A stretch of DNA of 60,254 bases, the filler included, from Dugesia japonica (taxonomy: Eukaryota), in the NCBI GenBank assembly GCA_001938525.1. It is 6 parts of 6 records of this genome, joined end to end, with 100 filler letters (N's around TTAATTAATTAA, not from the genome) between each part and the next. Parts side by side here need not be neighbours in the genome. Positions count along the whole stretch, not along the records: positions 1 to 10,043 come from MQRL01537070.1; 5 more parts are not named here. One strand, written 5' to 3'. Below are positions 1 through 28,168 of this stretch, in pieces (within the stretch, counting starts at the first letter, position 1; the number at the start of each line of letters is the position of its first letter). The position numbers and the translations under genes are program-made. The notes beneath the pieces are model-generated. The model saw only the letters and a list, made by a program, of their open reading frames with translations. It was not told the origin of the DNA and did no database searches.

Positions 1-248
1 TTTAACTCACTACATTTTAGTTGATAAATTTAACACACTACATTTTAGTTGATAAATTTAACTCACTACATTTAATTGATAAATTTAAGTCACTATATTT
101 TAGTTGATAAATTTAACTCACTACATTTTTATTTTAGTTGATAAATTTAACTTACTACATTTAGTTGATAAATTTAACTCACTACATTTTAATTGATAAA
201 TTTAACTCACTACATTTAGTTAATAAATTTAACTCACTACATTTAGTT
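1..248. repeat. ~28-bp tandem repeat array (TTTAACTCACTACATTTTAGTTGATAAA), about 8-9 copies, running off the window start
   Basis: The unit is directly readable with few substitutions. It abuts the 3' end of the Polinton fibre-like gene relic. Confidence 0.95.
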
Positions 249-249
249 T

Positions 250-1404
250 TAATAATTTTGTAAATATAAATATTTTTAAGTAAAATTAAAGTAACTTTAT
301 CTATAATATATTTATCAGTTAATATAATTTCTTGGTGTTCTATAAAAAAAGTAAATTATTGTTTTCTAATAAAGTTGTATTCAAATACTTTTAGAATATT
401 ATCAATCATTACATATATTTCCAAAAATGAAATATCAAAATATCCTTGAATTATAAAATAAGCTTTATCTCTTGTTCTATTTAAACAAAAATAAAGTTCT
501 AATGGTTTTTCAAGGAAATAATATTTATTTCTTTTTTTTTCTTTTTATTTTAAATGGTGAAATTAAACCAAAATAACTTGGTAAGGGGAACCCGTTGTAT
601 TCATTCATTCGTTATAATAAAAGTGGTTAATAAAAATATTAATACATCATTATACTTACCATATTTTTTTAAAATAAGAAATNGAAAATTATTATCAATT
701 ATTTCTTTAATCTTGTTTAATAAAGGTTGTTCATAAAGTTTTTCTAATGATGTTTGTTTATTTAACTTATCAATGTAATCGTTAATTTATTTAACACGGG
801 CAATATGAAGATCTTTCTTTATTTTATTAAATTCTGTTTCTAAAAGAATTAAAGGATCATTCTTCATTTGTTTATTACAATTGATTTTGTAATTTAATTT
901 TTCCAATTCTGAATTAATTTTATTAAATTTTTCAGGAGAACAATTACTTGTGAGATTTGTAATTTTACCAAGAGCTTTTTGATTTCCTTTATCAATTCTA
1001 TTATTTTATCATTAATATTTTTATCATTTTTAAAATCAATCTTCGTTGTGTTTTTAGCTTATTTTTTATTTAATTTATTTTAATAATTAATTCGCTATTG
1101 GTTTTAATCCAAGTTTTATTATTTTCTGAAAGTTGTTGAATATAGATATTTTGATTATTTACTTGTTTTTCTAATTTAGTAATTTCATTTTTAACTTTAT
1201 TCTTCAAATTATTTAAAAGTTTAAATTAACTGGATCTAATTCATTTCTAGGATCATTAATTATTTTCAAGCAAGTAATTGAATCTCCACTTTCACTAAAA
1301 AATCTTCCTTCATCATCTACAGATTCTAATTTTAATTTAGTGGAAACATGTTTTAATAATTCTGCATTATTTTGACTATTTAAAGTTTCTACACAAAAAT
1401 TCAT
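250..1404 (-). pseudogene. Homolog of Polinton ORF 55164-56090 (fibre-like), fragmented
   Basis: RFFSESGDSITCLKIINDPRNELDPVNLNF aligns with RFVNESGDTVKFLKIIYAPKDELDAVNLKF. Downstream KNDPLILLETEFNKI aligns with KNDPLFSLLLEFKKI. Confidence 0.85.
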
Positions 1405-1437
1405 TTTCTATTTTTTATAAAGATATACAATATATTT

Positions 1438-1830
1438 TTATAAGTTATTTTTTATAAAAGTAATAAATAATTCATTAATAATTTCATCAAAACTCTTGAA
1501 TGAAATTGAAAATGAAAAATATAAACATAATATTCCAAAAATACTAGTTCCAAAAGGTTGAACTTGAATTTTGTTATTTACATTTACATGTTTTTCAATT
1601 TCTTTAAAATGTTTTAATCCATAAGAATCAAAATAATAACCTCGGCATAAAGCAACCCAATGACTTCCTTTTTGATTTGAATTTTGATAATTAATAATTT
1701 GAGCATCTTTAACTTCATCTTTCATTAATATTTCTATTTCAAGATTTAAAAAATCTGCAATAGAATAAAAATCAAAATTAGTTTTAGTATTTATTCCAAA
1801 TGTTTTTAGAAAATCTAAGATTGCATACAT
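1438..1830 (-). pseudogene. Adenain-like cysteine protease (Polinton PRO), catalytic Cys replaced by Phe
   Basis: Motifs GSHWVA, YYFDSYG and QVQPFGTSIFGILC, versus QVQPFETRICGVLC in the 54767 copy. Confidence 0.88.
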
Positions 1831-2495
1831 TTTTTATATGAACTAATAAAGAAATAGTTTGCCCATTAGAATCTATAGGATTATTATTTTCATCTATAAT
1901 ATTAAATTTTAAAGAATCAATACATTTGCAGTTTAATCTTGAATAAATTGGAGGATGAAATCTTTCTATAATTTTATAACCAAAACCTACAGTATTTGAA
2001 GGAAATGAATATAATAAATTTGATGGAGAATTATTGATATAATTACTTTTAACTAAATTACAAGTTATATTTATCATATTAATGTTTAAAATATCAATCT
2101 TATTTTCTGATAATATTTTCNNNNNNNNNNNNNNNNNNNNNNNNNNNNNNNNNNNNNNNNNNNNNNNNNNNNNNNNNNNNNNNNNNNNNNNNNNNNNNNN
2201 NNNNNNNNNNNNNNNNNTTGTTTAAAGATCTGGTGTAACTTCTATTCCATGATCTTTTAATTTACTAGATATTTCTTTAATTTCATAAGCACGTGGTTCA
2301 ATGTTGTTTTTGTTCACATTGATCTGGTTTTTCATTTAATTCAAAAGTATTATTTTTACTAGTAACATTAAAAATTATATTATAACAACTAAAACATAAT
2401 AAACACATTTTATAATTAGAATCTAATTCTATTGGAAATCTTAAATCAACTTCTAAACTAGATTATTTACCAACAACTAAAAATTGATGAGATAT
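1784..2495 (-). pseudogene. Penton / minor capsid protein, fragmented and spanning an N gap
   Basis: N-terminal SHQFLV..LEVDLRFPIELD..CFSCYNIIFN. C-terminal INITCNLVKSNYINN..LYSF..GYKIIE..IIDENNNPID..GQTISLLVHIK, typical of Polinton minor capsid proteins. Confidence 0.85.
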
Positions 2496-3470
2496 TTTAT
2501 TTAACTAAAATATTTATTTTTATAAACATTATATTTTTCTTTGGTAAATAATTCTTGGTTTAATACTTTACAAACAGATTTAATTTCATTGTGAATTATT
2601 ATTATGACCTACTTTCACTGCTGAAATTAATAATGTTAATCTTTCAAATAAAGATAGCGGATCTGAGTTTTAAATAAAATTGAAATCTTCACATTTAATA
2701 ATATCCTCTTGGATTTCTTTTTCAACAGGAGTCTCTTTTTTTGCTTAGGTATTTTAGAAGTTTTTTTCCCAGTTAAAAATTTATAATAATTAGAAGTAGT
2801 AGGAATTTAAATATTTAATTTATTTAAATAAATATATTTTTTGCTTCTTTATCATTACTTCCATTTTCTAAAATTAAATTCTTTACTTCTTCAAAATAAG
2901 GTATTAGTTCGTCTTTTGTTAAAAAGTATTTCTTTCCATCACTTTCTTCAAATAAATATATTTCTTTGAGTGGATATATTAATAACTTCTATTTTAAATA
3001 TGGGTATAATTGTTTTAGATAAATTTTCAACATATAAATTAAGTTTAGGAAAGAATTGTATTCTATTTTCAAAAAGACTTTTAGATTGTGAATCAATTTT
3101 TAACTTAGGTTTTAAATCTGGTTGTGAATTTAATTTTTCATTAGCTATAATAGTAGGTTGTTGCTCAAAGATTAAAGTATCTTGTAAAGTTTTTTATTCA
3201 ATTACATTAACAGTTAATAAATTATTAAAATCATCTTGACCTTTAATTAATTCTTTCAAAAGTTTTATTCTTACCAACTATGAAGATATAATTATTATTT
3301 AATAATTTTGAGCCAATAGAAATTGAGTTAATTCTGGATAAAGATTTTTAAGCTACCATTCAATTATCAATTCTCTTATTAAATTTAGAATTGAAGTAGA
3401 AAAATATATAATGTCTAAAAACATTAGTTCCCATTTGAATAAACAATTACTAATTGACGATTTACCTAAC

Positions 3471-3590
3471 AATAATAATAATAATAACAATAATAATAAT
3501 AATAATAATAATAACAATAATAATAATAATAATAATAATANNNNNNNNNNNNNNNNNNNNNNNNNNNNNNNNNNNNNNNNNNNNNNNNNN

Positions 3591-3625
<35 letters not shown>

Positions 3626-3635
3626 GAATAATAAG

Positions 3636-3663
<28 letters not shown>
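3471..3663. repeat. (AAT)n microsatellite spanning an N gap
   Basis: Directly visible. It explains the poly-N and poly-I ORFs. Confidence 0.97.
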
Positions 3664-3666
<3 letters not shown>

Positions 3667-3816
3667 TTATTTAATTAGAAAGACATTACATTATCAAGTT
3701 TGTAATTATTTTTTTCTTTGATTAATTACCAATGAAAGCTAAGATAAATTTCGATTGGTTGGTTTTATCTTTATGAAACATATAATCTAAATTAAATTAT
3801 TATTAATTCATTGAAA

Positions 3817-4282
3817 ATGTCAGATAACACTGAAGAAAATTTTAACAGTCAGAAAGAAACATTGATTTATCATACTGACAATGAATCTTCATGGATGGAA
3901 CCATTTTTTGATAACAAATCAGAGGATAATGAAGAAGAAGATATGAAAACAGAAGAAATTAATATAGTCGCAATTAAAATAGGGAATTATATTGCTGACC
4001 AATATGTTGTAGAAAAAGGTAGTTTTTTATTTAAATTATAGTAATTAATTATTATTCCTTAGATACGGTTCTTGAGATATTGGAAGAAAAATTTCCAAAT
4101 CTTAAGAAAGAATCAGAGTACTGAGCAACAGAAGTATACTGGTACAAATTCCTGTAGTATATAAGAATCAATATTAATACGATAATAAAATAATACTTGG
4201 ATGAGCCATTCAGTTATACATATGTATGTGACTTTTGTATACAACTAAAACTTAAAAAGAGAGTCGAACGTATCTTTAAATA
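3817..4282 (+). pseudogene. Unknown two-exon gene relic (acidic N-terminus, ~44-nt GT-AG intron ~4019-4062, three in-frame stops)
   Basis: MSDNTEENF..YVVEK splices in frame to DTVLEILEEKFPNLKKESEY*ATEVYWYKFL*YIRININTIIK*YLDEPFSYTYVCDFCIQLKLKKRVERIFK*. No family recognised. Confidence 0.4.
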
Positions 4283-4429
4283 AATATTAGTCATTATTTG
4301 TTGTTCTGATGTTATTATGTATTATTTCGAGCTGGAACCGATTAAAAGTTTTTTGTTCGATAATTCGAAACAAATTTTAATCGATTAATTTCGATTGCAT
4401 ACATAATGCACTCATAAAATTCATTCATA

Positions 4430-5655
4430 AGTAGGTAGATATAAGTGCACTGGCATCGTACCCCCTCCGCCGTCGACTGTTCTACTAATTTCAGGATTTT
4501 GACTGTTTTATTATGGAAGCATTTTGATTGGTCGTTAAGGATACGCGAAAAACATTTTCGAATTCGGGTTGGAACGGTTGAAATTTTGCTCGAGAAGGTC
4601 AAAAATTCGAATTTTTGATATAAAATTTTTTGGGTCAAATTTCATCGTGTGATTTTGAATATGATATTGGTCGTCTTAGAATTGAAAGTTAAACATTTTT
4701 TTATAGGGTTTGCTATATGAATATGCTTGGTTCTCGCAGAAAAGGTATGAGCGCACTGGCACAGTTGACCTTGTTTTAAAGGTTTTTCAACAAAAACTTA
4801 TCGTATGGTCATACAAATGACTGCATTCAATTCAAAATAAAATTTTGAACATTTATCTATAATGTTTATCGTCAAAAATATTTTTAGTTCAAAAGATAGA
4901 AAATTTCTAGGAGCCATGTCGCACCAAGGATGAAAAATTATTTTTTATAGAAATTTTTATGATAAGCAAACAAATTTGGTATTGATGAACTCAGAATTAA
5001 AAACTGAATATTTTACGTAGGGTTTGCTATATAAATATTTTTACTTTCCAAGATAAAGGTATGAGCGCACAGGAACACTAGATCTTGATCTACAAATTTC
5101 TCAGTGAAAACTCTTCGTAGGGTTATGGATATGATGGCATTCGATTCAGAATAAAATTATGAACATATTTTGTATAGAGTTTGTGGTGAAAATATACTTG
5201 TTTCAAAAGACAGAAAATTCCCGGTTACCATGACCCATCGAGGATGAAAAATCGCACTTTAAAAATACTTATGATAATCAAAGAAATTTGTTATTGTTCA
5301 ACTACGAATAAAAAACTGAACATTTGTTATATAGAGTTTGCTATATGAATAAGCCTGGTTCTCTAGGAAAAGGTATGAGCACACTGGAACAGTCGACCTT
5401 GTTTTATAAATTTCTCAACCAAAACTTATCAAATGGTCATGTAAATTCAGAATAAAATTCTGAAAATTTTATTTGTAGGGTTTCCTGTAGAAATATGCTT
5501 AGTTTAAAATATGGAAAATTACCGGTTACTATGTCCAACCTTAGTTAGAAAAATATTTTTTCTAGAAATTTACTTAGGATAGTCAAACAACTTTGGTATT
5601 ATTAAACTTAGAATAAAAACCTGAACATTTTGTATATAGGGTTTGCTGTATAAAA
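4430..5655 (+). mobile_element. Left arm of a modular-TIR element: AGTAG terminus plus about three ~313-bp internal repeats
   Basis: Terminus AGTAGGTAGATATAAGTGCACTGG. TAG(G/A)GTTTGCT recurs near 4705, 5018, 5332 and 5637. Each unit holds a GGTATGAGC(G/A)CAC(T/A)GG copy of the terminal motif. Homologous in reverse to 18661-20173 and 13989-15033. Confidence 0.8.
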
Positions 5656-6184
5656 AAACTTCCTTCTAATAATTTTATTTCGTGTGTTAATTTGAATTCA
5701 TTGTTATTAAATTTCGAAATTTTAGATTTTATTTAATATTCTTGATTTTTCCAGTAAATGTCGAATTTTAATGATTTTTATAATAAAAAGTTTTATTTAC
5801 CTTTGAAAATAAGTGGTAAAAAGTTGTACAAACTATTTCCATTGAAAATCTAAAAAACTGAAAACAATAAAATTGCTTTGATAAAAAATTAAAACTATTA
5901 AAATGTCAATATTGGTAACACATGTAAAATTAACATTTTCAAAAATTTATTAAATTTACAAAAATTTACAAAATAAATCTATTGACAATAATAAAATCAT
6001 ATACATTTAAATTACAAGACTTATTAATTAGACATTAATTTTCAAAATAGTATATATTTTTCTTAAACATAATAGACTAAAATTAAAATAAATTATTGAA
6101 ATAAATTAAATATTTTACTTGAATTGTCTGATTTCAGCATATACTTTGACAAAATACTAACGATGTGTGGTGTTAATTGATTTT

Positions 6185-7340
6185 CATTGGTTTACTATGT
6201 TAACTTCTTTATTATACATATTGGATTACTCTAACTATTTGTTTACTGTATCACATAGACTTTACTATATCACTTGGTTTGACATTAGCACGTGAGCTTT
6301 TCTGTGTTACAATGGTTTCATCTGTAACACACTGGCTTTGCCGTGACACATTATCTTCATTTAAACACATGGGCTTTACTGTGTCACATTCGCTTACTCT
6401 TTCTATTGATTTACTAAAACGCGTGGATTTTACTGTATCAGATCAGTTTTCTTTACCCGTTTTTTTTTGCTTTATCAACTGATTTACTCTATTTACTGGC
6501 TTTCTATCCCTTACTAAACTCTGTGAAATTTATAAATTAAGTAAATTATTGGAAATTTAATAAATCTTAATAAAATCAGGCTATATTTTAATTATAGGTC
6601 GATACATTTCAATGGAATTGCTTAAAGACTTACTATATATTTTGTGTATATTTATAGAAATTTTATAAAATTAAGTTATTCAAATAGAATTTAGACTTGA
6701 AAAAATTTCATACTAATGTCTCAATGTAAAATAGTTGGTTACAACTTGCTTATATGTGACTATAATTTATTCATATTAATTATAATTTACTCATAACCTT
6801 CAATAATTTGTACATAGTTTATTTTTTTACGCATAGGTGGGGATAATTTGCTCATAGGTGACTACAATTTGTGCATAAGTGTCAGTATATTACACATCAA
6901 TGGTCGTAATTCATACATAAGTGGTAATAATTTGCTTGTAGGCGACTACACTATATTCATGGTTTAATAAAATCAGTGTATAGATGATTGGATTTGAAGT
7001 ATGTTCAATTGATAAATTAGTAATAAGTTGAATAATTTGATTCGATCAGAAACTTTGTGTGATATTCATTGACTTTACTATATTACACTGGTTTTATCTG
7101 TAACACATGGGCTTTACTAGGATCATCAGTTTCACAGTTACACATTAGTTTACTGTATTACTTGGGGTTTACTGTACTAATATGCTTACTTTATTCACTG
7201 GTTTTACTATATCCCATTGTTTTCACTCTATCATATTAAGTTACTGTACTTATTTGCTTACTCTATCCATTAGCTTTGTATATAGACTTTGCTATGTTCA
7301 TTGATTAATGGATTAATTTACTGTATTTACCCCGAAGAAA
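6185..7340. repeat. Degenerate minisatellites: ~19-bp TTTACTGTATCACA-type (6185-6520, 7070-7330) flanking ~21-bp ATAGGTGACTACAATTT-type (6740-6960)
   Basis: Recurrent TTTACT(G/A)TATC and ATA(G/A)GTG..AATTT cores. Confidence 0.6.
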
Positions 7341-8049
7341 GTTTTATATAACTATGCAATTTGATTACCTGTATCATTAGTTGTAAGATGAAATGGATTA
7401 TGACTATAGAATCATGTTAACTATCAGTAAACCTTAGAATCAGCTTAGTGTTTTTTTCAATGAAAATAGTGACTTTTGCTTATTGATTTGTGTCTCATGA
7501 GACAAATTAAACATATTCAATGGATAAGCTGGCTGTATTGCTAAACTTGAACGAGTAGATTAAGATAAATGACGGCATTGAATATAATATGTAAGTCAAA
7601 TATGTAAATGACTTGAATGTATAAGCTTAATGTATGTATCGGGTTCATTGAATGTTCTAGGTTTAGTGGATTTTTTTGGTTAATGAATATATCGGGTTTA
7701 ATGATTTGTACTAGTCTAGATAGAACGTATACAAGTGTCGACATGTTTTTCTTTGTAATATTGGACAATTTCTGAAAGATTTGACCTATATACACGAATA
7801 ACAAATTTTAGAAATTTGAAAAGATTACTTTTTTTGCATACAATGAATTTTAAAAAAATATATTGAAAATGCTAATATAATTAATTAATAATTTTAATTA
7901 AAATTATTTAAAATCAAATGTAGGTATATTTCTATATAAAATATTACTGAATGAAATTGATGATTTGTACGCATCAAACAAATATATGTAACAATCTTTA
8001 TTAATCCAAAGAAAGACAAATGTATGATTACAATGGAAATTCTTGGACA

Positions 8050-8450
8050 TAGTTAAATAAAGTATAAAAAATGTTATCATCGTATAAAAATTTATGACTT
8101 CTGTAAAATCTTTATTAATGTTCACACAAAACATGGAAATTATAGATATATTTCCATGACTACTGTGAAATTTTAGATAGATTTTCACGACTACTCGGAA
8201 ATTTTGAATAATTTTCCAACACTTCAATGAAATTCTGTGTAAATTTTGAACACATATCGGAAATATTTGCATTATTTTTCCATTGTTTTACATAGGATTT
8301 GAGAATTTTTCAACACTTCTCTGAAATTCTTTATAAATTTTTAATAAATCTCGGAAATTCTTTATAAATTTCCAACATTTCTATGAAATTATTTATAATA
8401 TTCCAACACTTCATGGAAACTCTGTACCATTTTCCAACAATTCCAAAATA
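8050..8450. repeat. Degenerate ~31-bp tandem repeat (TTCCAACACTTC..GAAATT..TATAAATT type)
   Basis: CAACACTTC and GAAATTC cores recur with a period of about 31 nt. Confidence 0.6.
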
Positions 8451-9281
8451 ATATAAGCATCATCACCAAATGCCTGCATTTCTGCGTGCACCTCTGCATA
8501 CAGCTCGTCTGCCCCTCTGCGTGCACCTCTGCTTTCTCCATTCCTTCTTTCCTCTAAAAATTAAAAACAAACCCTTGCGGTAGAAATCAGTTTAATAACA
8601 TTATAAAAAATATTACTTTTTTGTGAATTCATAAATATATAATAGATGCATCTGCTTAATATGAAATCGATACAGGTGAAAGCGCTCACAAATCCAAACA
8701 TTAGCTAAATATGAATCATTCAAGTATTTTACTGTAATATAAAGTCATTTGAACGCTTCTGAAAATTGATTACAAAATTCTTCAATCAAATGCTTGAAAG
8801 GATTTTATCTGGTTATTTCTAAAATATCCGAAGTGCACATCATTTTCCCATAATTCTAAATATCTTTCTGTTTTCTTTATTTTAACTTAGTTTTATTCTA
8901 ACCCATAGAATCACAAGAGATCATTTCCAAGCAGTTATCTCATGAAATTTTGATTTGGGAAAATAAATAATAGAAAACAATAACAATATTTAAAAATGGT
9001 TTAATTTATTTTTTAATAGAAAATTTTCTCTATAGTTAAACTCGAAAACTTTTAAATCAAATAGAAATTGCTTCATTAACTTTTTAAAAATAACTACTTG
9101 AAAATAACTTATGATAAAATTTTAATAAAATTTTAAAAATAAATAATTTATCAACTCTTTCCTTAAAATTTCAATATAAATTCTAGTTGTTTAACTTATA
9201 TATTTTAATGAATTGATTCAGACTCCATTGTCATATTTATTTGAATTATTTTTTGTGGGATTTGAAATAACTTTTTAAATT

Positions 9282-9805
9282 ATGGGTAAAGAAATGAGTA
9301 AAATTTTACCTGGACTTTAATATGGTCGGTTGGATATACTCAAAATGATAATGATATAATGGCTAATTGTATTACTCATGTTCTAAGTGTTCATGAACCA
9401 GTTAAGCAAAAATTACACAAGGTTTAAATTTTTAAATTTTTTTTAATAATTAATTTCGATTTAAGTTCAATTTCTATAAATATGTAGAAATAAATATTAA
9501 AGATGAGGAAACCGCTTGTATATTAAAGTATTTCAGTAAAAACAATGATTTTATACAAGAAGGCTGAATTAAAAATGGAAATGTTTTAATTCATTGGAAT
9601 TAAATTGCATTTTTTTCGCTGTATATAGTTATGCTGGTGTGACAGGAACACCAACCATTGTTTATATTTAATGTCAGTTTATCATTTAACTTTTCAAGAT
9701 ACATTTAATTGTTTGCGAGCTGTACGACAAAATATTAATCCAATAGCATTTTTTGTTAAACAATTTAATGGTTTTGAAAGTAATAAAGTCTATGCAGAAA
9801 GAGAT
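9282..9805 (+). pseudogene. DUSP22: Atypical dual-specificity phosphatase (DUSP22/DUSP15-like) pseudogene with two very short introns
   Basis: MGKEMSKILPGL*..ITHVLSVHE..[intron ~9422-9465]..KYVEINIKDEETACILKYFSKNNDFIQEG*IKNGNVLIHC[~32-nt intron]YAGVTGTPTIV..LRAVRQNINP..FVKQFNGFE. This matches the DUSP22 pattern MGNGMNKILPGL/THILSVH/LVHCLAGVSRS/ANPN.GF..QL..FE. It has stops, frameshifts and a catalytic R->G change. Confidence 0.8.
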
Positions 9806-10043
9806 GATTTTTTAAATTTTTTTTTGAAAATTTAATCTTTTAAAAGCAGATTTTTAAATTAATTAAAAAAATTTTGATATAATTTTACTGTTTTGATAAA
9901 ATACGAAAAAATTAGTTAAATATGACTATTTTAACAATAATAATAATAATTCAAAAATATTTTTCTAATTCCATTTAATTAGCGTATTTATTCGAATAAA
10001 CAGTGAAAATTACTAATATTATTATTTTATTATTTATTAATAT

Positions 10044-10143: not shown

Positions 10144-11510
10144 TACAGTTAATGTTAAGAATAAGGATAATATGTGCTTCATCTACAGTAAACTTGTGGT
10201 TCTCAAACTAGATGAAGTTGATGATATCAAATTATAGAAACTTTATGAATGAATTGGTGTATGATGAAACTGATATGCCCATGAAGTTGGTAAATACCCC
10301 ATAATTTGAGAAGCAAAATCAAGGATATGCCATCAAAGTCTTCTCCTAGAACTCACAACAGTTAAGAATAATGATGATATAGTCATGAAGCATCCAAACT
10401 TGGATATTATTCAGCGATCAAAAGTAGAAGATGGACAAGAAATTAATCTTTTCTTGCTTGAAGATGTAGAAAATTACCATTACACTGTAGTAATAGATTT
10501 AGATAGACTGATAAATAGGGACATAAAAAGGAATAGAGAGCAAATTCGATCAATTTGGTGCCCAAATGGCTTAAATGGATTCAAGAATAATATTGCTTGG
10601 TACAAAAATTTATAAAATACCAACAGATCCTAATTTGGAGTAAAAGTACTTTTCAAATATGATAACTCCTCCATTTGTCGTATATGCTGCTTTTGAATCA
10701 AATTTGCCAAATGATCCGATTTATCATCAGAAACATCTGCCAATTTCAGCTGGACTACTGTTGGTAAAAAACTACATAAATGAGACTAAACACAGTAAAT
10801 TTATCGGGAATGACTGTCTTTATGAGTTTTTAGAAGAAATTGAGAATAGTACTAATAATGTAGTATACCCTTACTATTTGAAACATGGGAATAGGAAAAA
10901 TGGTAATAGCTCCTGCACAAAAAATTTAATTTGCTGCCACTGTCATATGTTATTCATGTAAAAAATCAATAGTTCAACCAGTTCGCGACTCATTTTTGTC
11001 AATAAACATCATGTTAAATCTGATGAAAATACAGAACTTTTGTATTTTGATATTTATAATTTGTATGAGTGGGCATTAAGTCAACAGTTGCCATATAAAG
11101 ATTTTGTGTGGTTACATTTAAGATTGGATGAAATATTAGCAAATTTTAGGAGAATGAACTTGGATTCGTTGACATATGGATATGTAATAGAGGTGGATAT
11201 AGTAATTCTCAATGAGTTACATAATTATTTGAATGATCTACGGGTAGCAGCTGAATATCAGAGCCCTCCTGGTAGTAAAGTGAAGAAATTACTCTTAACA
11301 CATTACCCAAAGAAGAATTATGTAGTTCACTGTAGGCTGCTGCAGATATACTTGCATTTAAGTGTGAAAGTGACAAATGTACATGGAAGTGTTAAGTTTA
11401 GTCAGGCTGACATATTTAAGAAATACATAAATATGAACACAGAGATAAGACCACACCGGAAAAACGAATTGGAGAAGATCTAATACAAGCTATTAAATAA
11501 TAGTCTACAG
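10144..11510 (+). pseudogene. polB: Protein-primed family B DNA polymerase relic (third Polinton), internally deleted
   Basis: Motifs VNVKNKDNMCFIYS, INLFLL..HYTVV.DLDRLI, PFVVYAAFES, YFDIYNLYEWALSQQLP (motif A), YVIEVD, KNYVVH, and YKLLNNS (motif B, interrupted by the hAT). Confidence 0.9.
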
Positions 11511-13980
11511 CAGGCCTGCACAACATACGGCCCGCAGGCCGCATGTTGCTCGTAAGGTTTTATGATCCGGCCCTCAATCCTTTAAAAAATTTCATAAAAA
11601 TGTCAAATGCAAAATCAAAGTTTATATTTTTAATCTTTTATAAAGCCTTTTTTATTATGTTTTCTACACATTTTAATTAACATTGCTGTATTTCATTGCA
11701 AATTGTTTATGATCTCTCCCTAATAACAATTCCCCACGCTTTAATTATTTTTAATTTGAAAATTTTATTTCAATTTGTAATTTTATATCAAATTATTTAT
11801 ATAACTACAACTACACTATAGAATTTTTCAAATGTTTTAACGTTTTGATTTTTAAAATAACTTTAGTGTACTTTTATAATTGATAAGAGAACATTTGCTA
11901 CTTTTACAGTTTAAAATAAATTATATTTAAAGCTTAATTAATTTAAAACTTTTATATTATAAGTTCAATTAATTTAAAAATTTATTTAATAAATTTATTT
12001 AGAAAAAAAATTATAAATGAACAATTAATCAATATTTTTTAGATTTTATAATGAGTGAAAAAAAATAGAAACTGAGCGTAGAATATTTAACTCGGAATGG
12101 ACAACCAGATATTTATTTACTTTATTGCAAGATAAGATACTTTGTCTCGTTTGCTGTGAAACAATAGCAGTCCCAAAGGAATACAATTTTCGTTGCCACT
12201 TTGGCACCAAACACCAAACATTATCCAAATTAGATGAGAAAGAGAAAAAACATAAAGCAGCGACTTTAATGTCAGCCATAAGCGGAAAGCAAAACATTTT
12301 TAAGAACATTGTAGCAGAGAATAAAACAGCAACTCGAATAAGTTTCCAGATTTTAAGGGAAATTGCTGCTGCTGGAAAAGCCTTTATTGAAGGGGAATTT
12401 GTGAAGAAATGTATGTTAATGAGAGTTTTTTATTTATGTCCATAAAAAAAGAAAATGTTTGAGAATGTTAACTTATCACGAATGACAGTACAAAGAAGAA
12501 TAACTGAAATTTCAGCAAATATCAATGATCAACTCTAAAGAAAAGCTCGGAAATTTTCATTCTTTTCTTTGTGTATAGACGAAAGTACAGATTTACAAGA
12601 TATTGCCCAACTTATTGTTTTTATTAGAGGTATTGACAAAAATTTTAATATTACTGAGGAGTTTGTTGGAATATGCTCCATGTCTGGACGTACGACAGAA
12701 AAAGAAATATTTAATGAAATGAAAAAATCTGTGACCGACAATTTGAATAATAATTTTACTAACTTGGAAGACATTTGTACAGATGGTGCCCAGCAATGTG
12801 TGGAAAAAATATTGGTGCCCACACTCCTTCAAGAATTTACTGGGAAGAAAATCATTCAATTACACTGTATTGTGCATCTCCCGGTTTTACGCAGCAAAGT
12901 TTTAAATTTTAAACATGTAATGAAGGTGATAGTTTCTGTTGTTAGCTATATTTGATCTAGTGGATTTAAGCATAGAACTTTTAAAGCTTTTCTAGAAGAA
13001 GTGGATATTAACTGTACGAGTTTACTCTACCATACCTATATTCTTTGGTTAAGCTGTGGACGGACGCTACAGCGTTTTGTTAATTTGAGATCCGAAATTG
13101 TTGCTTTTCTCCAAAATGAATCACGAAAATTTCTTGAACTTTAAGATGACGCTAGGAATTTCGATTTATTTTTCTTCTGTGATATTACACAGCATTTGAA
13201 TGATTTGAATATGCAACTTCAAGGAAAAAACCAATCTATATTTGAATGGCTAGCTGCTATCAGAGCCTTTAAAATGAGATTAAAATTTTTCAGAAGTCAA
13301 CTTTTAAAAAGTGAAATATCTCATTTTCCTACTTGCAAGCAACAAATTTCTCACCATAAGTATATAGATCTAGGACAAAAATATGCAGAACAAATCAATT
13401 TATTAATTGAAGAATTTGAGAGAAGATATGCCTTATCTGATAAAACATACGGTCATCTAAAATTAATTGAAGATCCATTTTATGTTGACGTTGAATATGT
13501 ACCACTCGAGTTGCAGTTTGAGGTTATTGAACTCCAGTGTTCAATATTGTATAAAAATAATTACAGGGAAAAGAACTTACTGGATTTTTGCAAAAGTTTG
13601 GACAGTAACAAACATAAAAATCTTATAGAACTTGCAATGAAAATGTTCTGTATTTTTTGTAGCACTTACTTATGCAAACGAACCTTTTCAGTAATGAATT
13701 TTAATAAAAATAAACACTGTTTTTATCTCACAAATGAACACATGGAAGATATTTAAAGAACAGCAACATCAAATATGACACCAGAATATGATAAGCTTGT
13801 CAAGGAAATGAAGTGCAATACTTCTCATTAAATTTTATAAAGATAATTTTTATTAATATAATTTAAAACACATTTTTTTTCTTTATTATTATCAAACATA
13901 GTCTTTTATATTAATTCTGGCCCTCGAAAGTTTTCCCTGAAAATTTAGGCCCTTGAAGCAATCTAAGTTGTGCAAGCCTG
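11511..13980 (+). mobile_element. hAT transposon, Buster/SPIN (GTF2IRD2-like) group, 2470 bp
   Basis: 14-bp TIRs CAGGCCTGCACAAC ... GTTGTGCAAGCCTG (1 mismatch). 8-bp flanks GTCTACAG (11503-11510) and TTCTACAG (13981-13988) have the central TA of the Buster nnnTAnnn target. Confidence 0.93.
12051..13831 (+). pseudogene. hAT transposase (SPIN/GTF2IRD2/EPM2AIP1-like), disrupted
   Basis: Motifs RIFNSEW..YLF, CLVCCETIAVPKEYNFRCHF, CIDESTD, CTDGA, HCIVH, LNMQLQGK, and STYLCKRTFS (catalytic E->K). Several stops and frameshifts. Confidence 0.92.
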
Positions 13981-13988
13981 TTCTACAG

Positions 13989-15033
13989 TAAACCCTATGT
14001 GAAATGTGTTTAGATTTTAATTCAGAGTTGAATAGTATGAGAATATTTTAAAAATTATCATTAATTTAACTATAATTATAAGTTATAATTAATTATATAA
14101 TTATATATTATTTCTTGAACGAAGCATTTTTATACTGCAAACCATTTATGAAAGATTTTCAGTTTTTTATTTTGAGCTCAAAGATATTCAATTTGTTTGC
14201 TATCATAAGTATTTCCAGAGTAAATAATTTCTTTTATCAAAGGTGGGGCATAGTACCCGGTAATTTTCTATCATTTGAACAAAGCATATTTATACAACAA
14301 AACTTATACGAAATATGTTTGGTTATTTTATTTTAAATCGAATGCTATTATTTAAAGAGCCATACGATAAGTTTTTACTGAGAAATTTGTAGATCAAGTT
14401 CAANNNNNNNNNNNNNNNNNNNNNNNNNNNNNNNNNNNNNNNNNNNNNNNNNNATAATTATAAGTTATAATTAATTATATAATTATATATTATTTCTTGA
14501 ACGAAGCATTTTTATACTGCAAACCATGTATGAAAGATTTTCAGTTTTTTATTGTGAGCTCAAAGATATTCAATTTGTTTGCTATCATAAGTATTTCCAG
14601 AGTAAATAATTTATTTTATCAAAGGTGGGGCATAGTACCCGGTAATTTTCTATCATTTGATTTTAAATCGAATGCTATTATTTAAAGAGCCATACGATAA
14701 GTTTTTACTGAGAAATTTGTAGATCAAGTTCAAGTGATACAGTGAGCTCATACCTTTATCTTGGAAACTAAAAGTATTCATATAATACACCTTATAAAAA
14801 AATGTTTAGAATTTTATTTTGTGTTCAACAATACTAAATTGTAAATTGTACGATAAAAATTGACCGAAAAGTTTCGAACCAAAAATTCGATCATTCCGAC
14901 CAAAATTCGAAAAAATCTTTTACTTACTCATAACGACCCATCAAAATCCCACATTTCTGTATCACTCAAATTACTAGATCACTTCATCGGTGGGGGAGGG
15001 GGAACTGATCCAGTGCGCTTATATTTCAAGTAT
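13989..15033 (-). mobile_element. Right arm of the same modular-TIR family, degenerate
   Basis: Contains the ~315-bp unit sequences (GATCAAG..CAGTGAGCTCATACC) and the terminal block CGATAAAAATTGACCGAAAA..TAACGACC..GGGGGAGGGGG..CCAGTGCGCTTATATTTC. The AGTAG tip is not conserved. Confidence 0.7.
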
Positions 15034-18000
15034 AAAATAAAAGTTACGCACCACCGATATGGAAATTACTAAATTAATCAATACTCTAGAAAGTTTATAT
15101 GTTGACTTTTACAATTCAATCCATGTCAAATTCAATAAGAACTTATAGTCTTGTTAATAAGTATTATGAGATGCAGTTTTAGTTTTCATTTTGATGACAC
15201 CATTTTTCTAATGTCCAAGCACATAGTTTCTTATGACATCTTTGTGTTATGCATTTTTTTAAAAATGTTTATTTCGAGTGAATTTTTAACATTGATTTAT
15301 ATTCATTAGCAAGAAATCAACAACATATGGTTTTGGCTCAATTTTCAAGGGATAGGAAAAACTTCATACATCCTTAAAGTTGCCACATGGACTCCTTGAA
15401 TTAGATAAAATTATTAGTGTTTAACCAAAAAGTACTGATGAAGAGCACACTTTTCCATTATGTAGGTTAGTTCTGAACAAATCAAAAAAGCTATCTATTG
15501 ACTGCTATAGATTTTATTTAATATTTTTACAAAATTTAATATTGTAAAAGAATAACATTTTTGAATAATTTTTGCATAGTTTATTCAAATTATTAGTATA
15601 TTCTCTCAAAGGTAGATATCATATTTATTTATAGTTTTTAATATCTTCTTTAATTCGATAAAATCTAAAAATTCAGTAAATAAGCCAATTTTTAAATGTT
15701 GAATTCGGATAAAAATCACTCTCAGTTCAACTATATTCTATATTAGTAAACCAGTTGTTAGGTGAGTCTGAAATTTAAAAGATTTTTAATATACTTTAAT
15801 TAACTAGTAAAATTAGAGAAAGAATAAAATATTCAAACAATTTGAACAGAGCCTGAAACTCAAATTTAGTTTTTAACATAAATTTTCATAATTACAAAAT
15901 TTATAAATTTCTGATTTTATTTCTGAAATAAATATTGTATTAAAGTATTGCTAGAAGAAAATGCTAAGAATAATTATTATCATTCAAAATAGGCATAATA
16001 TAAAATAATTAAGTAAAATAATAACTAATGAACAAAAGGAACCGATAAAAGAAAGAAATAAAAAACCGAAAATAAATAAAATTGCCAATACGGGAAAGGA
16101 AAATAAATTAAGAAAAATAAATAAAATAAAATAATAATTAAATTAAATTAAATTAATAATTAGATGAGAAATAATAAACCAAGTTAAAAGAAAAGCAACT
16201 ATAATTGGGTTCGAAGAAAACATCAGAGGAAAAAAATTACAAATTTAACCATTTCTGTGAAACCAAAATCAAAATCGAATATCTAATTAACGAAATCTCA
16301 TTAAATTAAGTGTTGTGCACATTTTGTTCCACAGATAAATAATATACTACGACTAGAAGTATATGAAACAACAAAAATTTAGTGGAAATTGCAATTTTCT
16401 GCAATAATTCGGTAATCATTAAAGTAAACGGAAACATGTTTGGAACTCATTACTAGCATCAGAAATGCACTTTAATTCCATAATTCTCCATGAGTGACAC
16501 AAAAGTTATTAAAGGATAGAGAAAAGATGGAAATAGAATAAAAATTTTGAGGAACTCTCAGTCGTATTTTAAAAGAAAAAAATAAAAACTGCAAAATAAG
16601 GAAAAATTAACCGTAAATTATTTTCTTAATTAATCTTCTGAAAAAGTACTTGATTATGTTCTTCATTGTTAGTACGCACAAAATTTTCTTAAGAGGCATA
16701 TGATTTCGAAGCAAGCATAAATACGGCTTCGAATTCACATTAAATTTAACCAAAGTTTGAGCCAAAAATATATTGAAACAAAATTTTGTTGAGAACTTTA
16801 AAATATTTTAGAAGAAACTTTTAGGACAAACATACTTTGATAGCGTTGAAGACTTTCGGAAGAAATCATTATTTGAAAAAAATTATCTTTATTGAATCAA
16901 CACAGATAAGTATTTATGTTTAATAATTATATTTATTTATAATCATATTATATTTATTTATTGTATAATATTATATTTATTATATTATTTACTAATATTT
17001 ATAAAATTATATTATATTATATTTACTAAAGTCATATTAATGAATAATTAGCATAAATATTTTGGTAATGTAATTTATAAATAATTTCCTTTTAGCTTCC
17101 CGAAATTCAGTAGCATAATGCATTTCAGAAATATATTTCATATTTAACATTGATTACTTTGAATAAGATATGCATGTTAAACAAGTTAATCGTCAAAAGG
17201 TTCTCAATAATACATATGCGTTTTTTGGTAGCCAAGAAATTTAAATCAGATCTCGTGTCATTTAGGACTAAATCGAATGAAATTTATCTTTACAAAACAA
17301 GCGATGATCCGCAGCCGCCAATATATTTTTTAATGTAATTATACTATTCCAGATGAGTGTGTAAACATGAATTAAATGATAAATCGAAAAGGAAATGAAG
17401 AAGAGATTTTTCAGAGATTTTTGACTATAATGTAATGACGGAAATCGTCAAAAATTGTCAACAGAAGCCGCTTATTTGCGATTTGGAGGAAGTTCTTAAA
17501 GAATCGATAACGGGTTATTGTATCTTAAACGAAGAATCCTATGGATTATTTTGGAAATAGAAAAAAAATAGAACAGAAAATATCTTTATCTAAGTGAAAG
17601 CTCGAAACGAATTTAAAAACAGAGAAAGGGACTATGATTGTGTGAGAAAAGGATTTTAAGGGAACTGACAATATTCCATGAACTTTTTATATTCGAAATG
17701 GAACAATATGTCACTGCCTCAAGTATAGTTTTCTCTTCTTTTCAATCTTTTTTTGTAGTTGCCAATGCTTAAAACTAAACTCAACACTTGAAAATATGAT
17801 CAAATTTTATAATTATATTCTAACATTAGCATGCAAGTTCAAATACAATATATAAACATTTCTAGCTTTTTATAATCAATTAAAATTCTACCAAAGATCA
17901 TTAAAGCTCATTATTAACTATTACATAATTGAGGGATAATACTATTGCCTTGGTTTATTATTAATCCGCATTCAACCAGTAATTGATATGATCAGAAAAT

Positions 18001-18354
18001 TTGGAATGTTTAAGATGATGGTTCACCAGTTGTAAATTACCTTCTTCACTAGCAGCCCTACATAGCAAAATTAATTCTAGCAAAATTTCTATCAAATGCA
18101 TTATATAAACNGTATTTTTGAAGATTTATTATGTGATTATTAAATAAGTAAAGTAAGTGTAAGTCATTTTATTATGTCATTAGAAAAAAAATGTAATTTT
18201 TTAACATTTAACTTTAAGCTGAAACAACTCAAGTCCAAATAAAAATTTTTAAAATAAGTAATAATATTTTAAAAATGTATGTAAAATAATATTTATGTGG
18301 TCTTTGTTTTAATATCAATTGATAAGCCTGTATTTTTATTAACAAATTCGAAAA

Positions 18355-18560
18355 TGAAAGAATGCAATGGAATGCGATTTATCTTCATAAGTTCAAACTA
18401 TGCTATGGAGCTGTGGAGGCCACTTGTAATGTCACCAGCGCATTCGGCAGGAAGAACGTAAATATTCGCACTATGTAACTATTGTTTCAAAGATTTCCAG
18501 AAGATAAAAGCCTAACAAATAAAGAAGGTTGCAGACTAAACAATTTAATTAAGACAGATC
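18355..18560 (+). pseudogene. Mariner (Hsmar/SETMAR-like) transposase N-terminal HTH relic, cut by the scaffold end
   Basis: AIYLHKFKLCYGAVEATCNVTSAFGRKNVNIRTM*LLFQRFPEDKSL resembles mariner AIFLFEFK.G..AAE..RNIN.AFG....ERTV..WF..F..GD.SL. Confidence 0.7.
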
Positions 18561-18660: not shown

Positions 18661-20173
18661 TCTTGGAAAATAAAATTATTCACATAGCAAAGCATACATG
18701 GAAAATGTTCAGTTTTTGATTCTGAGTTCAACAAAATCAAATATGTTATTTTATCATTAGTATTTCTTGAAAAAATAAATTTTCGTTCTCTGTGAGACAT
18801 GGAACCTGGTGATTTTCTATCTTTTGAAATAAAAATATTTTTACAACAAACCCTGTACAAAATATGTTCAGAATTTTATTCTGAATAGAATGCTATCATT
18901 TTTAGATCCATAAGATAAGTATTGGTTGAGAAATTCTTGGATCAAGGTCAAAAGTGACAGTGCTGACATACCCTTCCAGAAAGAACCAAGCATATTCACA
19001 TAGCAAACTCTATACATAATATGTTCAGATTTTAATTCTGAGTTTAAAATTACCAAGTTTGTTATTTTATCATAAGTATTTCTCGAAAAATTAATTTTTC
19101 ATTTTCAGCGCGATATATAACTCCTGAGAATTTTCTATTTTTTGAAATAAAAATATTTTTACAACAAACCCTGTACAAAATATGTTTAGGATTTTATTCT
19201 GAGTCGAATGGTACCATTTACAAAACGATCCGATAAAAATTCGTTGAGAAAATCTTGGATCAAGGTCAAAAGTGCCAGTGCTGACATACCCTTCCAGAGA
19301 GAACCAAGCATATTCACATANNNNNNNNNNNNNNNNNNNNNNNNNNNNNNNNNNNNNNNNNNNNNNNNNNAATTTTCGTTCTCTGTGAGACATGGAACCT
19401 GGTGATTTTCTATCTTTTGAAATAAAAATATTTTTACAACAAACGCTGTACAAAATATGTTCAGAATTTTATTCTGAATTGAATGCTATCATTTTTAGAT
19501 CCATAAGATAAGTATTGGTTGAGAAATTCTTGGATCAAGATCAAAAGTGACAGTGCTGACATACCCTTCCAGAAAGAACCAAGCATATTCAAATAGCAAA
19601 CTCTATACATAATATGTTCAGATTTTAATTCTGAGTTTAAAATTACCAAGTTTGTTATTTTATCATAAGTATTTCTCGAAAAATTAATTTTTCATTTTCA
19701 ACGCGATATATAACTCCTGAGAATTTTCTATTTTTTGAAATAAAAATATTTTTACAACAAACCCTGTACAACATATGTTTAGAATTTTATTCTGAGTCGA
19801 ATGGTACCATTTACAAAACGATCCGATAAAAATTCGTTGAGAAATTCTTGGATCAAGGTCAAAAGTGCCAGTGCTGACATACCCTTCCAGAGAGAACCAA
19901 GCATATTCACATAGCAAACCCTATACAAAAAATGTTTAAACTTTAATTTGTAGTTCAACAATACCAAAATTTCAATTGTACGATAAAAATTGACCGAAAA
20001 AATTGGTTTCGAAAATTCAAATTTTCGACCGTTCCAACTCGAATTCGAAATTTTTTTTCATGTATTCGTAACGACCAATCAAAATTCTTTCATACTGGCA
20101 CTTCAATTACTAGCACGATCGACGGGGGGGCGTGGGGGGGGTCATCGTGCCAGTGCTGACGTATCCCACTACT
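18661..20173 (-). mobile_element. Right arm of the modular-TIR element: ~318-bp tandem units ending in an AGTAG terminus
   Basis: GCATATTCA(C/A)ATA recurs near 18990, 19308, 19583 and 19901. The reverse-complement terminus AGTAGTGGGATACGTCAGCACTGG is followed by a C-run and GATTGGTCGTTA, as at 4430. Confidence 0.85.
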
Positions 20174-20730
20174 ATCAACTTATTGTTTTCAACTGTTTTA
20201 CTATAACCATTAAATACAACCACTGAACTGTATGACACAAATCCAACAAAGTTCACCTAATTAAAACTATAAATCTATTAAACCTTTTATATTAGATAAA
20301 GTTTAGTGAAATTAAGATGAGTTAAAGAAATTTTTGAAATATAAATAACTTTGTGAAATTAATTAGTTTTCATTAGCTTTAGATTAATTAATGAAATTTA
20401 TGAAACTTCAGAAAATTAAGGCAATTAATGGAAATTTAACAAATCTTAATAAAATTGTGAGGATTAATTACATTTAGGAATTTTTAGATTTTGTTTAAAT
20501 AATATATTCAGTTTTTTGGTGTTAAATTTGAAAAGTAAATCTTCGTCAAAAAGGTTTTATCGGTAATTATTTGATTTTAGTATTTTGGCAAGGTAATATT
20601 GTTTCCGTTGTAATTTTTACAGTGTAATTTTTAAATTTATATTGTTAAATTTATTTAGAATCCCTGTTATTATTAATAAATAATTATGATAAAAGAAGAT
20701 TGTTTTTTACCAGAGGTATGTATGCCTTAG

Positions 20731-22990
20731 ATGATAGGAGGGTTAATACCGACACAATTGCAGAGAAACTTTAGTAGAGATGGAGAATTGTGTTTATTTA
20801 TAAAACAGTGCGAGTTGTATTTTGCAACTAAAGGGATTAATGCTCAAAGAGATCAGGAAAAGCTAATAACTTGTTTATTAGACACTGATTTGATAGAAAA
20901 ATATTTTAAAACTGCAGATAGAGCAATGGGTTTTCAAGCACGTATGCGGCTGGCTTTTCACAAGGAAAAAGATATTTTAGAAGACCTGAAGAGTTTATTA
21001 ACATTCAGACGAGGAAATTTGGAGTTAGATAAATTCATTAAAAAAGCAGAGACTCTAGTAGAAAATATTTTTACACACAAAGATTTAACTAAAGAAGCGT
21101 TGTTAGCGAAAGTTCTAGTGAGTGCATCTGAGAGTAATACTTTGCAGAGAGAAGTGGTACTCAGAAAACAATCCACGGTAATGGAAATTAAGGAAACATT
21201 TGGTTTATTAGATAAGATAGAAGGCAGAAAAGATCATATTGATGCGATAAGAAGTCAGACAACAAGATTGAATAAGGATTGGCACAAACCAGTAAGTCCA
21301 CAAAACAGGAGCAACTTCGAAGATCAGAAAGAACAGTTGAATGTTGGGGCAGTAATAAGAAGGGTCATATGAGGGCACAGTGGCCTGGGAAAGAATTTAG
21401 AGAATCTTGGTTGTGTCATCAGAAGGGACATTTGAGTAGGAATTGTATAAAAAATCAATGAGGAAGATATTTCGGTTGCGGTGAATTGGGGTATATAAGA
21501 AATGAATGTTCAAAGTTGAAATGTTTTCGTTGTGGTAGAGCAGGTCATAAAGCGACAAGTTGCCGAGAAGTTTGGAAGAGTGATAGGATAGAGTTTAGAA
21601 ATGAAGAGAGACGAGAACAAAAAAATTGGTTTGGATATTTTAATACAGTTAAAGCGATAGATATAGTGTAGCAACATGAGGAAATGTTAGAAGAAAATTG
21701 ATCAGAGTCATCACACCCAAATGGGAGGGATCCGCCAAGAAAGGAGTAAGTAGGGGCCGATTATTAGTAAATACAGGTAAGGAAGATCCTCAAGGAGTAG
21801 AGACGTGGAAAAATAGAGAAAAGGTTTGTGAAAAAGTGTATATGTTTTTGAAGAAGGATAAGTTTTAATTGGAATGGGATTTAAAATGGGTGGGTGTTTT
21901 GTCAGGAGGACAAGAAGTAGAGATTAGATTTGATAGATTACAGCGTAGACCGAGTGAGATGATAACTATCGATGGAGTTTAGATAGAATGCCTTTTGGAC
22001 ACGGGAGCGCGCATAAATGTAATCAGCGAAAAATGTTTGAAGAGATGGCCAGAAGCAAGAGTAATACCCATCAAATGGAAAGTGTGATTAGAGGTGCTAT
22101 TAGGTGAGAGCAAATCGGGAGTGGAATTTATAGTAGCAGAAAATGTGTTTCCAGATATTATTGTAGGGATAAATTTCCAACGTATTTTTGGATTTCATTT
22201 ACGCAGGTAAGAGTTATCTAAAGAGATACGTAACAGTGAATTAGTAGAAAACATTGAAGCAAGATTCGGCAAAGAAGCTACAGAAAGAGACACATGGAAG
22301 CGAGTAAAATATATGATTGGAATGCAGGATGACAATTGTTTACAGGTAATTTTTAGATGGGATATAAATGCTTTTATGGCGTCAAAATGAGATGTGGAGT
22401 GCACTCACATTGTGAAGCAAATATTTGTGACAAAAGCTGAGCCAATAAAGGTAAAACTGTATAGAATTCCGATGCATTTAGTAAATCACATGAAAGAGAT
22501 AATTCAAAACTTGGTGGAAAACAGTATCATTCGGAAATGTAATTCACCGTGGAATGCACCATTAATTTGCATATGGAAGAAGGAGAAGAATGATGTACGA
22601 CCTTTTCTAGATTTTAAAAGGTTTAACGCAATTACAGAAAGATAAGCATTTCCGATGCCTAATGTAGATGACATGTTAGTTGCATTACATGGAAATGTGT
22701 ATTTCAGCTTGATTGACTTAAGTAATTCATACTACTAAGTAAAACTAAAAAAAGACTCGCAAGAAAAAACAGTTTTTTTGACAAAACATGACAGTATTGT
22801 TTCACGCGAATGCCTTTTGGGATAGCAGCTGCTCCAGGAATTTTTCAGGAGATGATAGGAAAAGTCATAGATAATATCGATGGGTCGATGGTATATCTCG
22901 ACGATATCCTCATTTTCTCTAAAGACAAGGAAAGCAATCACGCTCGAGTGGAGAAGGTATTGGGCTGGACTGAGAAATAATCCGGAAAAA
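20731..22990 (+). mobile_element. Ty3/gypsy LTR retrotransposon relic: gag with four zinc knuckles, protease, RT; 3' truncated
   Basis: Gag 20731-21670 with CCHC-type motifs. Protease CLLDTGARINVIS (~21990). RT SPWNAP, LDFKRFN, FPMPNVDD, MPFG, YLDDILIFS (~22890). A possible 5' LTR TG..CA at ~20457-20711 is unconfirmed. Confidence 0.9.
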
Positions 22991-23461
22991 TTACTTTTCA
23001 TATAATTTTAATTCTCAATAATAATTTCACTAATTGATATAAAACATAAATTTCAATTTTCGAAAATTTCATAATGAATTAGATCTTATTAATTTGAAAA
23101 ATTCATATTTGGATCGGATCTACTGATTTTGAATAAATATTATAAGTACTAGAATCTAGTAACTAAATGGATAGAATTCAGATAACTCCATACAATTTCT
23201 AAAAAAAGAAATTAGTACAATTATATAGGTTTGCTGATAATAATAATTATAGCCTCATATTGCATACACTATTTCTTAAAGTTTCAATAATCTAAAATTT
23301 TAAATATTTTTTGTTGCAAACAAAATCACAGTCAGTATTATTTGACTTTTATTTCTACATATAATGCACATTAGTCTTCGAAAATAGTTACTATTGTAAA
23401 TTAAATCTTACAGAAGTGTTTTAATTAAATAACCTAATTTATTTTCCTCGCAAATATTTAA

Positions 23462-27675: not shown

Positions 27676-28168
27676 TTTTTTTATTTTTTTCAAATATTTT
27701 ATGTATAATTATTCGCATTTAAAATTTTAAAGTTGTTATGGATGTAGATTTTTAAGTTTTGAGCTTGTTTAATTGTGTTAGCAAAATCGTTCTAAGACAG
27801 TTTATTTTCAATATCAAATCTATTTTCACATTTTTATTACAAAATTCAAAGATAACTTTGTACAATAAAATATCCTAAAGAGAATTATTCTTCTCATAAA
27901 TATTTTAAGTAAATATTTAATTGGGTAATAATTTTCACAATTAATTAAAAATTCTTAAAAAATTTCAAAAATAAATTCGTCGTTTTTTCTTGGGCTTCGA
28001 GGTTTTGTTTAACTCAATCCTATTGATGTTTTACTCGCTTCTTCTTCTATTGTTTGATACAATGGTGGTAGATAACCCGAAGCCAGCAAAAATGTGACAG
28101 TGGTTCATACACTGTTCATATACTTAGATTTATGTGGGTCTTAGAAAGTCGACTTGATGTTAATGCTC

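Follow-up and report, generated by a model that had tools for sequence, protein, structure and literature searches.

A conserved terminal signature on several scaffolds of Dugesia japonica: candidate Polinton-type ends

Genes and mobile-element remains in the window

The window (the whole stretch of DNA analysed, 60,254 nucleotides with filler) consists of six Dugesia japonica scaffolds joined by N44-TTAATTAATTAA-N44 spacers, namely S1 (1-10043), S2 (10144-18560), S3 (18661-28168), S4 (28269-37475), S5 (37576-48947) and S6 (49048-60254), and has a GC content of 25-26%. A decayed hAT element, LTR-retrotransposon-like remains, a 1,382-aa leucine-rich-repeat frame and much Polinton DNA were found, the last accounting for about one quarter of the window (about 15 of 60 kb), and an Rfam scan gave 0 matches. 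The leucine-rich-repeat frame (23527-27675), presumably LRRC9-like, is uninterrupted and unusual in its absence of introns. The LTR-retrotransposon-like remains (20731-22900 and 29086-31500) include a frame judged gag-like by eye and an integrase zinc finger match at 30895. Additionally, a 43-bp piece at 20413 matched position 6534 at 91%, and degenerate arrays with units of about 20, 21 and 31 bp, unrelated to the ~315-bp modules described below, were present in S1 (6150-7400, 6826-6960 and 8090-8450).

Polinton genes occurred on three scaffolds, S1, S2 and S6. A Polinton gene set without its ends occupies S6 (49048-60254), in which a double jelly-roll capsid protein, an rve integrase and an A32-type ATPase were recognised by Pfam, and PolB (in the opposite orientation), a protease and a minor capsid protein by similarity to viral contigs. 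The best relative of its ATPase among 1.84 billion representatives was 54% identical, and one close match was returned for the PolB tail; judged by similarity, the S6 Polinton is a divergent lineage. A second, S6-related remnant (431-2982, minus strand) lies in S1, outside (to the left of) the element end at 4430. Beside it, at the scaffold start (1-248), there is a 28-bp tandem array of 8.8 copies, in a place where the S6 element has further genes; this array is possibly the subterminal array of another Polinton family.

In S2, the gene for a Polinton-type protein-primed PolB (10144-11510, plus strand) is broken by stops and frame breaks and cut at the motif KLLNNSL. It matched locus L111 with an E value of 5e-29 and showed no tblastn match to the S6 PolB at E<=0.01, which points to several Polinton lineages, as several end families would need. 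The decayed hAT element follows directly (11511-13980, plus strand), with matches to Spin-doc zinc finger, DUF4371 and hAT dimerisation domains, intact 14-bp inverted ends and 8-bp flanks that match at 7 of 8 positions.

A terminal signature and its three families

The signature AGTAG-NN-RGATA-N5-GCAC had four exact matches, on S1 (4430-4453, plus strand), S3 (20150-20173, minus), S4 (35442-35465, plus) and S5 (38039-38062, minus). A preliminary description had reported them as gap-free ends on four different scaffolds, and its letters, coordinates and strands were exact. The ends start with AGTAGT at 20173 and 35442 and with AGTAGG at 4430 and 38062, two hexamers that together occur 50 times in the window. 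The block RGATA-N5-GCAC takes up positions 8-21, with its two conserved parts (GATA at 9-12 and GCAC at 18-21) nine bases apart.

The full pattern, matched four times in the window, averaged 0.00 matches over 100 dinucleotide-shuffled versions of the window, a test that is circular. In a non-circular test, the 16 positions common to 4430 and 20173 alone were used as the query and scored across the window. The 38062 end was recovered at 15 of 16 positions (0.0002 sites expected) and the 35442 end at 14 of 16 (0.007 sites expected); no site scored 13, and seven sites, including two module copies, scored 12 (1.8 expected). Either half of the pattern, AGTAG-NN-RGATA or AGTAG-N12-GCAC, was found exactly four times in the window and at the identical four sites. 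Over five ends, each of the first five bases was conserved in 5/5 and the positions outside stayed at background level (one column of 20 reached 4 of 5), and the GC content of the first 50 bases was 0.48-0.68 compared with 0.26-0.36 just outside (the four strong ends and the one at 15033). Because conservation starts at the A of AGTAG and GC rises inward, these sharply bounded sites are read as element termini, and it is well supported that the four strong sites and 15033 are termini of mobile elements.

The ends at 4430, 20173 and 15033 can be aligned with one another at about 70% identity, first along an outer part without repeats that starts at the tip and then along tandem modules (for 4512-5250 against 20094-19373, identity is 72.8% over 747 bp). 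They are thus copies of one element, here called family A, and the four strong ends represent three independent families. Earlier, the interiors had been described as different (~315-bp modules, GATC repeats or degenerate AT arrays); 4430 and 20173 belong to one family with common ~315-bp modules. In the first copy (4430-5670, plus strand), a GC-rich tip with a C-run and an unrepeated outer part of ~230 bp are followed by ~314-bp modules, and the inner motif returns at 4744 and 5058 and, as read from the sequence, in decayed form near 5372. The second copy (18661-20173, minus strand) has 318-bp modules that run past the scaffold start, with the inner motif at offsets 291, 609, 884 and 1202. 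The third (13981-15033, minus strand) has a homologous outer part and modules behind a decayed tip, the exact position of which is uncertain by about 2 nt; its inner motif lies at offset 280, and its array extends to the right end of the hAT element.

The modules of family A repeat every 314 bp at 4430 and every 318 bp at 20173, and a weaker periodicity of half that length appears near 157-161. The inner motif is found once per module, the first copy about 280-305 bases past the terminal one; the internal copies lack AGTAG and, in each array, show the same motif variant as the tip. At 14072-14733 and 18778-19913, nearly identical stretches (98.5%) overlap across N gaps, which indicates that assembly has inflated the module numbers of these arrays, and the duplication within the latter (18778-19320 against 19371-19913, 98.5% identical across a gap) is probably an assembly overlap. 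Since the family A members are ~30% divergent and the neighbouring PolB is broken, the copies are old. At 4430 the inner edge of the array, near 5670, passes into AT-rich DNA, and Pfam matched no Polinton gene or transposase over the 5.6 kb of S1 DNA inside this end; a phosphatase-like fragment lies at 9629.

Families B and C have only the first ~24 bases in common with family A. The interior of family B (35442) consists of degenerate AT-rich repeats over 2.0 kb up to the scaffold end at 37475, and Pfam found no Polinton gene in these 2 kb. It ends in an 87-aa frame at 37214 that belongs to no known family in Pfam (a weak unrelated match only) or the Atlas (nothing), and a reading of its CxxCG end as a TnpB zinc ribbon was dropped on the same results. 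Family C (38062) contains GATC-containing repeats of 18-19 and 23 bp over 487 bp up to the scaffold start at 37576. Cysteine-rich broken frames lie just outside the 4430 and 35442 ends (4060-4260, plus strand, and 35200-35441, minus strand) and are perhaps host or transposase fragments struck by insertions.

Two weaker versions of the signature had also been listed. The one at 15033 proved to be a homologous end with decayed first bases, whereas the one at 32603 (32603-32673, plus strand) is doubtful as a terminus. Although it starts with AGTAGG and carries an imperfect stem of 15 bp, its GATA and GCAC blocks are out of register, and it scored below 12 of 16 in the non-circular test. Its interior weakly resembles that of 38062, with a score reached by 9 of 500 local shuffles.

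Taking each end with its own scaffold, neither an inverted partner with a matching flank (0 of 6 ends) nor a target duplication was found, and the pairing of inverted ends that the preliminary description proposed for single long reads yielded no pair on the window scaffolds. The interiors of 20173, 38062 and 35442 exit the scaffold after 1.5, 0.5 and 2.0 kb, respectively, and the available interiors span 0.5-5.6 kb compared with about 17 kb for intact Maverick elements. Abundant non-autonomous derivatives, also suggested there, were not borne out as short elements, as a short two-ended copy was absent from the window and three interiors leave their scaffold within 0.5-2 kb. With no element traceable from end to end, membership of the Polinton family is likely but short of proven, and with no duplications the true first base of the ends is not fixable.

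Probable Polinton-type ends and rival explanations

Judged from sequence, the sites are probably, with some reserve, fossil Polinton-type (Maverick) ends. The commonest Maverick end is (AGT)2, with (AG)3 and (AC)3A also found; Maverick inverted repeats are 46-1,447 bp long with 6-bp duplications, and the repeats at the tip are expected to serve jumping-back initiation (PMC8097293). The family A arrays of 1.0-1.5 kb fit these published inverted-repeat lengths or the ~2-kb repeats of insect polintons. In the supplementary table of the same work, whole-word counts over all columns were 713 for AGTAGT, 339 for AGAGAG and 37 for AGTAGG. AGTAGG is the 5' motif in 35 of the 36 places viewed out of 37, in rows from tuatara (25), axolotl (9) and gharial (1) that are all marked 'fossil', most with a CCTACT partner and many with perfect 6-bp duplications. 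AGTAGT, earlier named as a Polinton end, is thus attested in the Maverick table, as is AGTAGG, and because the Mavericks of tuatara and axolotl include elements with AGTAGG//CCTACT ends, the broken repeat of AGTAGG is no objection. In the parts of the sources compared, insect polintons are reported in a preprint to have ~2-kb repeats and to include mobile polintons without polB (10.1101/2025.02.07.637071), and adintovirus virion proteins are apparently confined to animals (PMC8502044). Similar terminal 20-50 bases accompany related transposases (PMC7805219, in part), so the block in three families points to a common enzyme. The portions of PMC11445987, PMC3014272, PMC10045372 and PMC6431247 compared had little bearing on these ends.

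The PolB remnant of S2 points toward the 15033 end, and the hAT element sits between this remnant and the family A array. The right flank of the hAT element is module sequence (score reached by 0 of 300 shuffles) and the left flank is not (103 of 300) but is PolB; continuation of PolB to the right was rejected, because tblastx gave no match there and the flank matches modules. With module sequence on the right only and PolB on the left only, the two were presumably joined by deletion or rearrangement at or beside the hAT end. The simplest history would be a single Polinton from which the terminal part of PolB and the inner portion of the repeat have been deleted; the same picture would result from a deletion that fused two unrelated neighbours or from a mis-assembly. 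In the best matches of this PolB, L112 and L335, inverted ends are present and PolB is directed at whichever of them is nearer. One of the two visible inner array edges touches a Polinton gene, whereas the 4430 array runs into unrelated DNA. The sole contact is this rearranged junction and, with about a quarter of the window Polinton-derived, it may be due to chance. Of PolB or MCP between the ends, proposed beforehand as support for a Polinton origin, the window shows a PolB remnant inside the 15033 end across the hAT element and none inside 4430 (5.6 kb) or 35442 (2 kb). The proposed origin from Polinton terminal inverted repeats (TIRs) is partly supported: attested hexamers, Polinton genes and PolB beside one array speak for it, and 0 of 6 paired ends and no 6-bp duplication against it.

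Ends of Polinton-like elements outside the window were compared as well. Direct searches with the window PolB and ATPase returned no viral locus, and the outside set, gathered by alignment, comprised 15 distinct Polinton-like viral contigs, none of which had the motif at a contig end (0 of 15). Three contigs with inverted repeats at both ends had neither the block nor an AGTAG start there (0 of 3). These are L335/L464, L463 and L112, apparently whole linear contigs of 16.9, 15.6 and 9.8 kb with inverted repeats over 800 bp, of 123 bp and of about 490 bp, respectively. One contig is short only of the leading AG to read AGTAGC, which suggests possible trimming of the contig tips. In viral contigs, scans for the pattern gave 110, at least 120 and at least 120 loci. 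In the two 14-base scans, none of the matches listed begins at a contig tip, and the nearest of those listed is separated from the tip by 11 bases and is internal in other contigs too; in one scan, AGTAG-like letters stood upstream in 3 of the 120 loci listed. A metagenome scan gave 100 loci, mostly prokaryote-like by eye, with no match to the window's Polinton proteins and no inverted partner downstream, 20 of them having only 300 bases a side. The viral and metagenome matches look like chance. On the animal contig L129 (6001-6023, minus strand), the motif, a C-run and TCGAC are spaced much as in family A, but the further likeness of L129, which looked homologous by eye, is not significant (rank 3 of 99; score reached by 629 of 5000 shuffles), and L129 has no Polinton gene. 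L132 lies among giant-virus-like genes, and the results listed for L142 and L147 held nothing of note. As the outside scans gave no convincing match, the block is documented only for the Dugesia japonica genome.

From the motif, its sharp boundary, the three families, its recurrence in the modules and the adjacency of the PolB remnant, we infer Polinton identity and binding of a protein. The sites would be the outer TIR tips of at least three unrelated-looking Polinton/Maverick families or gene-less long derivatives, decayed and separated by deletions and by short-read assembly. A role of the terminal hexamer in protein-primed initiation and in integrase joining is established or expected for the Polinton family. 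AGTAG(T/G) would accordingly be the terminal repeat where the terminal-protein/PolB complex starts synthesis and then jumps back, and the same end would be joined to host DNA by the retroviral-like integrase with a 6-bp duplication. RGATA-N5-GCAC at positions 8-21, kept between families with non-aligning interiors, is most likely bound either by the terminal-protein/PolB complex or by the integrase, by analogy with the adenovirus core origin at 9-18. Family A would have tandemly duplicated and homogenised a stretch of ~280-318 bp with the block and without the AGTAG tip, leaving one internal site per module. These periodic copies may be extra binding sites or passengers of the duplicated unit.

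Foldback-type Mutator/MULE ends, on which a DDE transposase would bind the GATA-N5-GCAC block at the tip and its periodic copies and which would leave an 8-11-bp duplication, are an unlikely alternative. In Tetris, ~220-bp tandem repeats follow an outer flanking domain, the duplications are 8-10 bp long and an ORF is absent (PMC4079207, in part), Tm1 has composite repeats and 9-bp duplications (PMC3169594, in part), and the repeats of MULEs often extend over hundreds of bases (PMC6446971, in part). Family A follows the same plan of outer domain plus array, and one site per module is also typical of the array of a cut-and-paste transposase. Against this, the hexamers match Maverick ends exactly, AGTAG is absent as a MULE end from the literature portions compared, and Pfam found no MULE transposase remnant in 30 + 44 frames, which cover only 60 kb of the genome. 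Three text supplements of a MULE paper held 0 words starting with AGTAGT or AGTAGG, a weak point since their tables list lengths rather than ends. An other or undescribed inverted-repeat superfamily, with ends starting at TAG after a fixed AG or Harbinger/Kolobok-like from the G, seems quite improbable. The first base is not fixed without duplications, and the inner block is absent from the ends of the outside Polintons examined, both of which leave it some room. However, with the tip at G the flanks are ATAA, GATA, TTAA, TTCA and AGAA (TTAA in 1 of 5, TNA in 3 of 5), and a fixed AG target with TAG ends is without precedent in the literature portions compared. Academ ends are TAG, and the Kolobok target is TTAA. 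Academ duplications are 3-4 or 9-10 bp in the sources compared in part. piggyBac/Kolobok was rejected on its TTAA target in 1 of 5 flanks (tip at G), and Tc1/mariner/pogo because TA lies directly outside the end in only 2 of 5, a count that also tells against the pogo origin once listed as an alternative.

It is very improbable that the sites are Helitron-like rolling-circle 3' ends of the opposite strand (reading ...GTGC-N5-TATCY-NN-CTAC and inserted before T), with internal tandem repeats like those of Helentron-derived elements, although this would explain why no inverted partner was found for any of the six ends. Every end would have T next, small palindromes lie 10-25 nt from the tip, and 32603 has its 15-bp imperfect stem. 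Helitron ends have CTRR with a hairpin, or short repeats with a TT insertion (PMC8969392 and PMC11417382, both in part), but here the end would be CTAC in 5 of 5 and not CTRR (PMC11417382, in part), and a single CTAC end is known as an atypical event from a mutant donor (PMC4778049). Furthermore, tip folding was no better than in shuffles (0 of 6 significant, z from +1.16 to -1.25), an HLE2-type TT insertion was seen in 3 of 5 flanks, about background, and Pfam gave no RepHel remnant in 74 frames.

Meaning and comparison with known systems

For annotation, the 21-base signature locates ends belonging to several unrelated repeat families of Dugesia japonica, and the ~315-bp arrays are suggested to be parts of element ends rather than free satellites. 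If the Polinton origin and the inner block hold, a concrete site becomes available for asking how the ends are recognised in replication and integration, where the literature portions compared treat only the first six bases as the signature. Polinton ends as such are already known, and the conserved block at 8-21 is the only detail that is possibly new. No description of it was found in the literature, with Repbase/Dfam termini, the founding paper and adintovirus nucleotide ends outside the comparison, and a 12-mer literature search returned only papers unrelated by title. A tentative and rather doubtful extension would make the block, as a two-part site, the equivalent in Polintons of the adenovirus core origin, conserved across lineages with otherwise unrelated repeats and amplified in one family into a satellite-like ladder with one copy per 315-bp module. 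Should this hold, the block would add a defined cis-element to the terminal hexamer, make gene-less Polinton ends classifiable and link such ends to the way in which tandem arrays arise.

Like Tetris of Drosophila virilis and Tm1 of Meloidogyne, both filed with Mutator, these ends carry tandem modules behind an outer domain without repeats, lack coding sequence nearby and exist in many rearranged copies. Unlike here, the 7-bp end motifs of Tm1 differ from AGTAG, and the window contains no MULE transposase. In adenovirus, the core origin at 9-18 binds the pTP-polymerase (PMC2794291, in part). The likeness to the adenovirus inverted terminal repeat is a functional analogy only, namely a short terminal repeat and then a conserved block from position 8-9; the letters differ, adenoviruses do not integrate, and the site in Dugesia japonica is a putative one. 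Compared with published Maverick ends, the block at 8-21 and the 315-bp array repeating it are undescribed in the portions of text compared, and the Polinton/Maverick elements (adintoviruses; AGTAGT//ACTACT, AGTAGG//CCTACT) have paired ends and 6-bp duplications, neither of which was seen in the window. Their first six bases, sharp boundary and end regions of 1-1.5 kb are like those found here, and Polinton genes of the Beta-PolB type are present in this genome, with one remnant adjoining an array.
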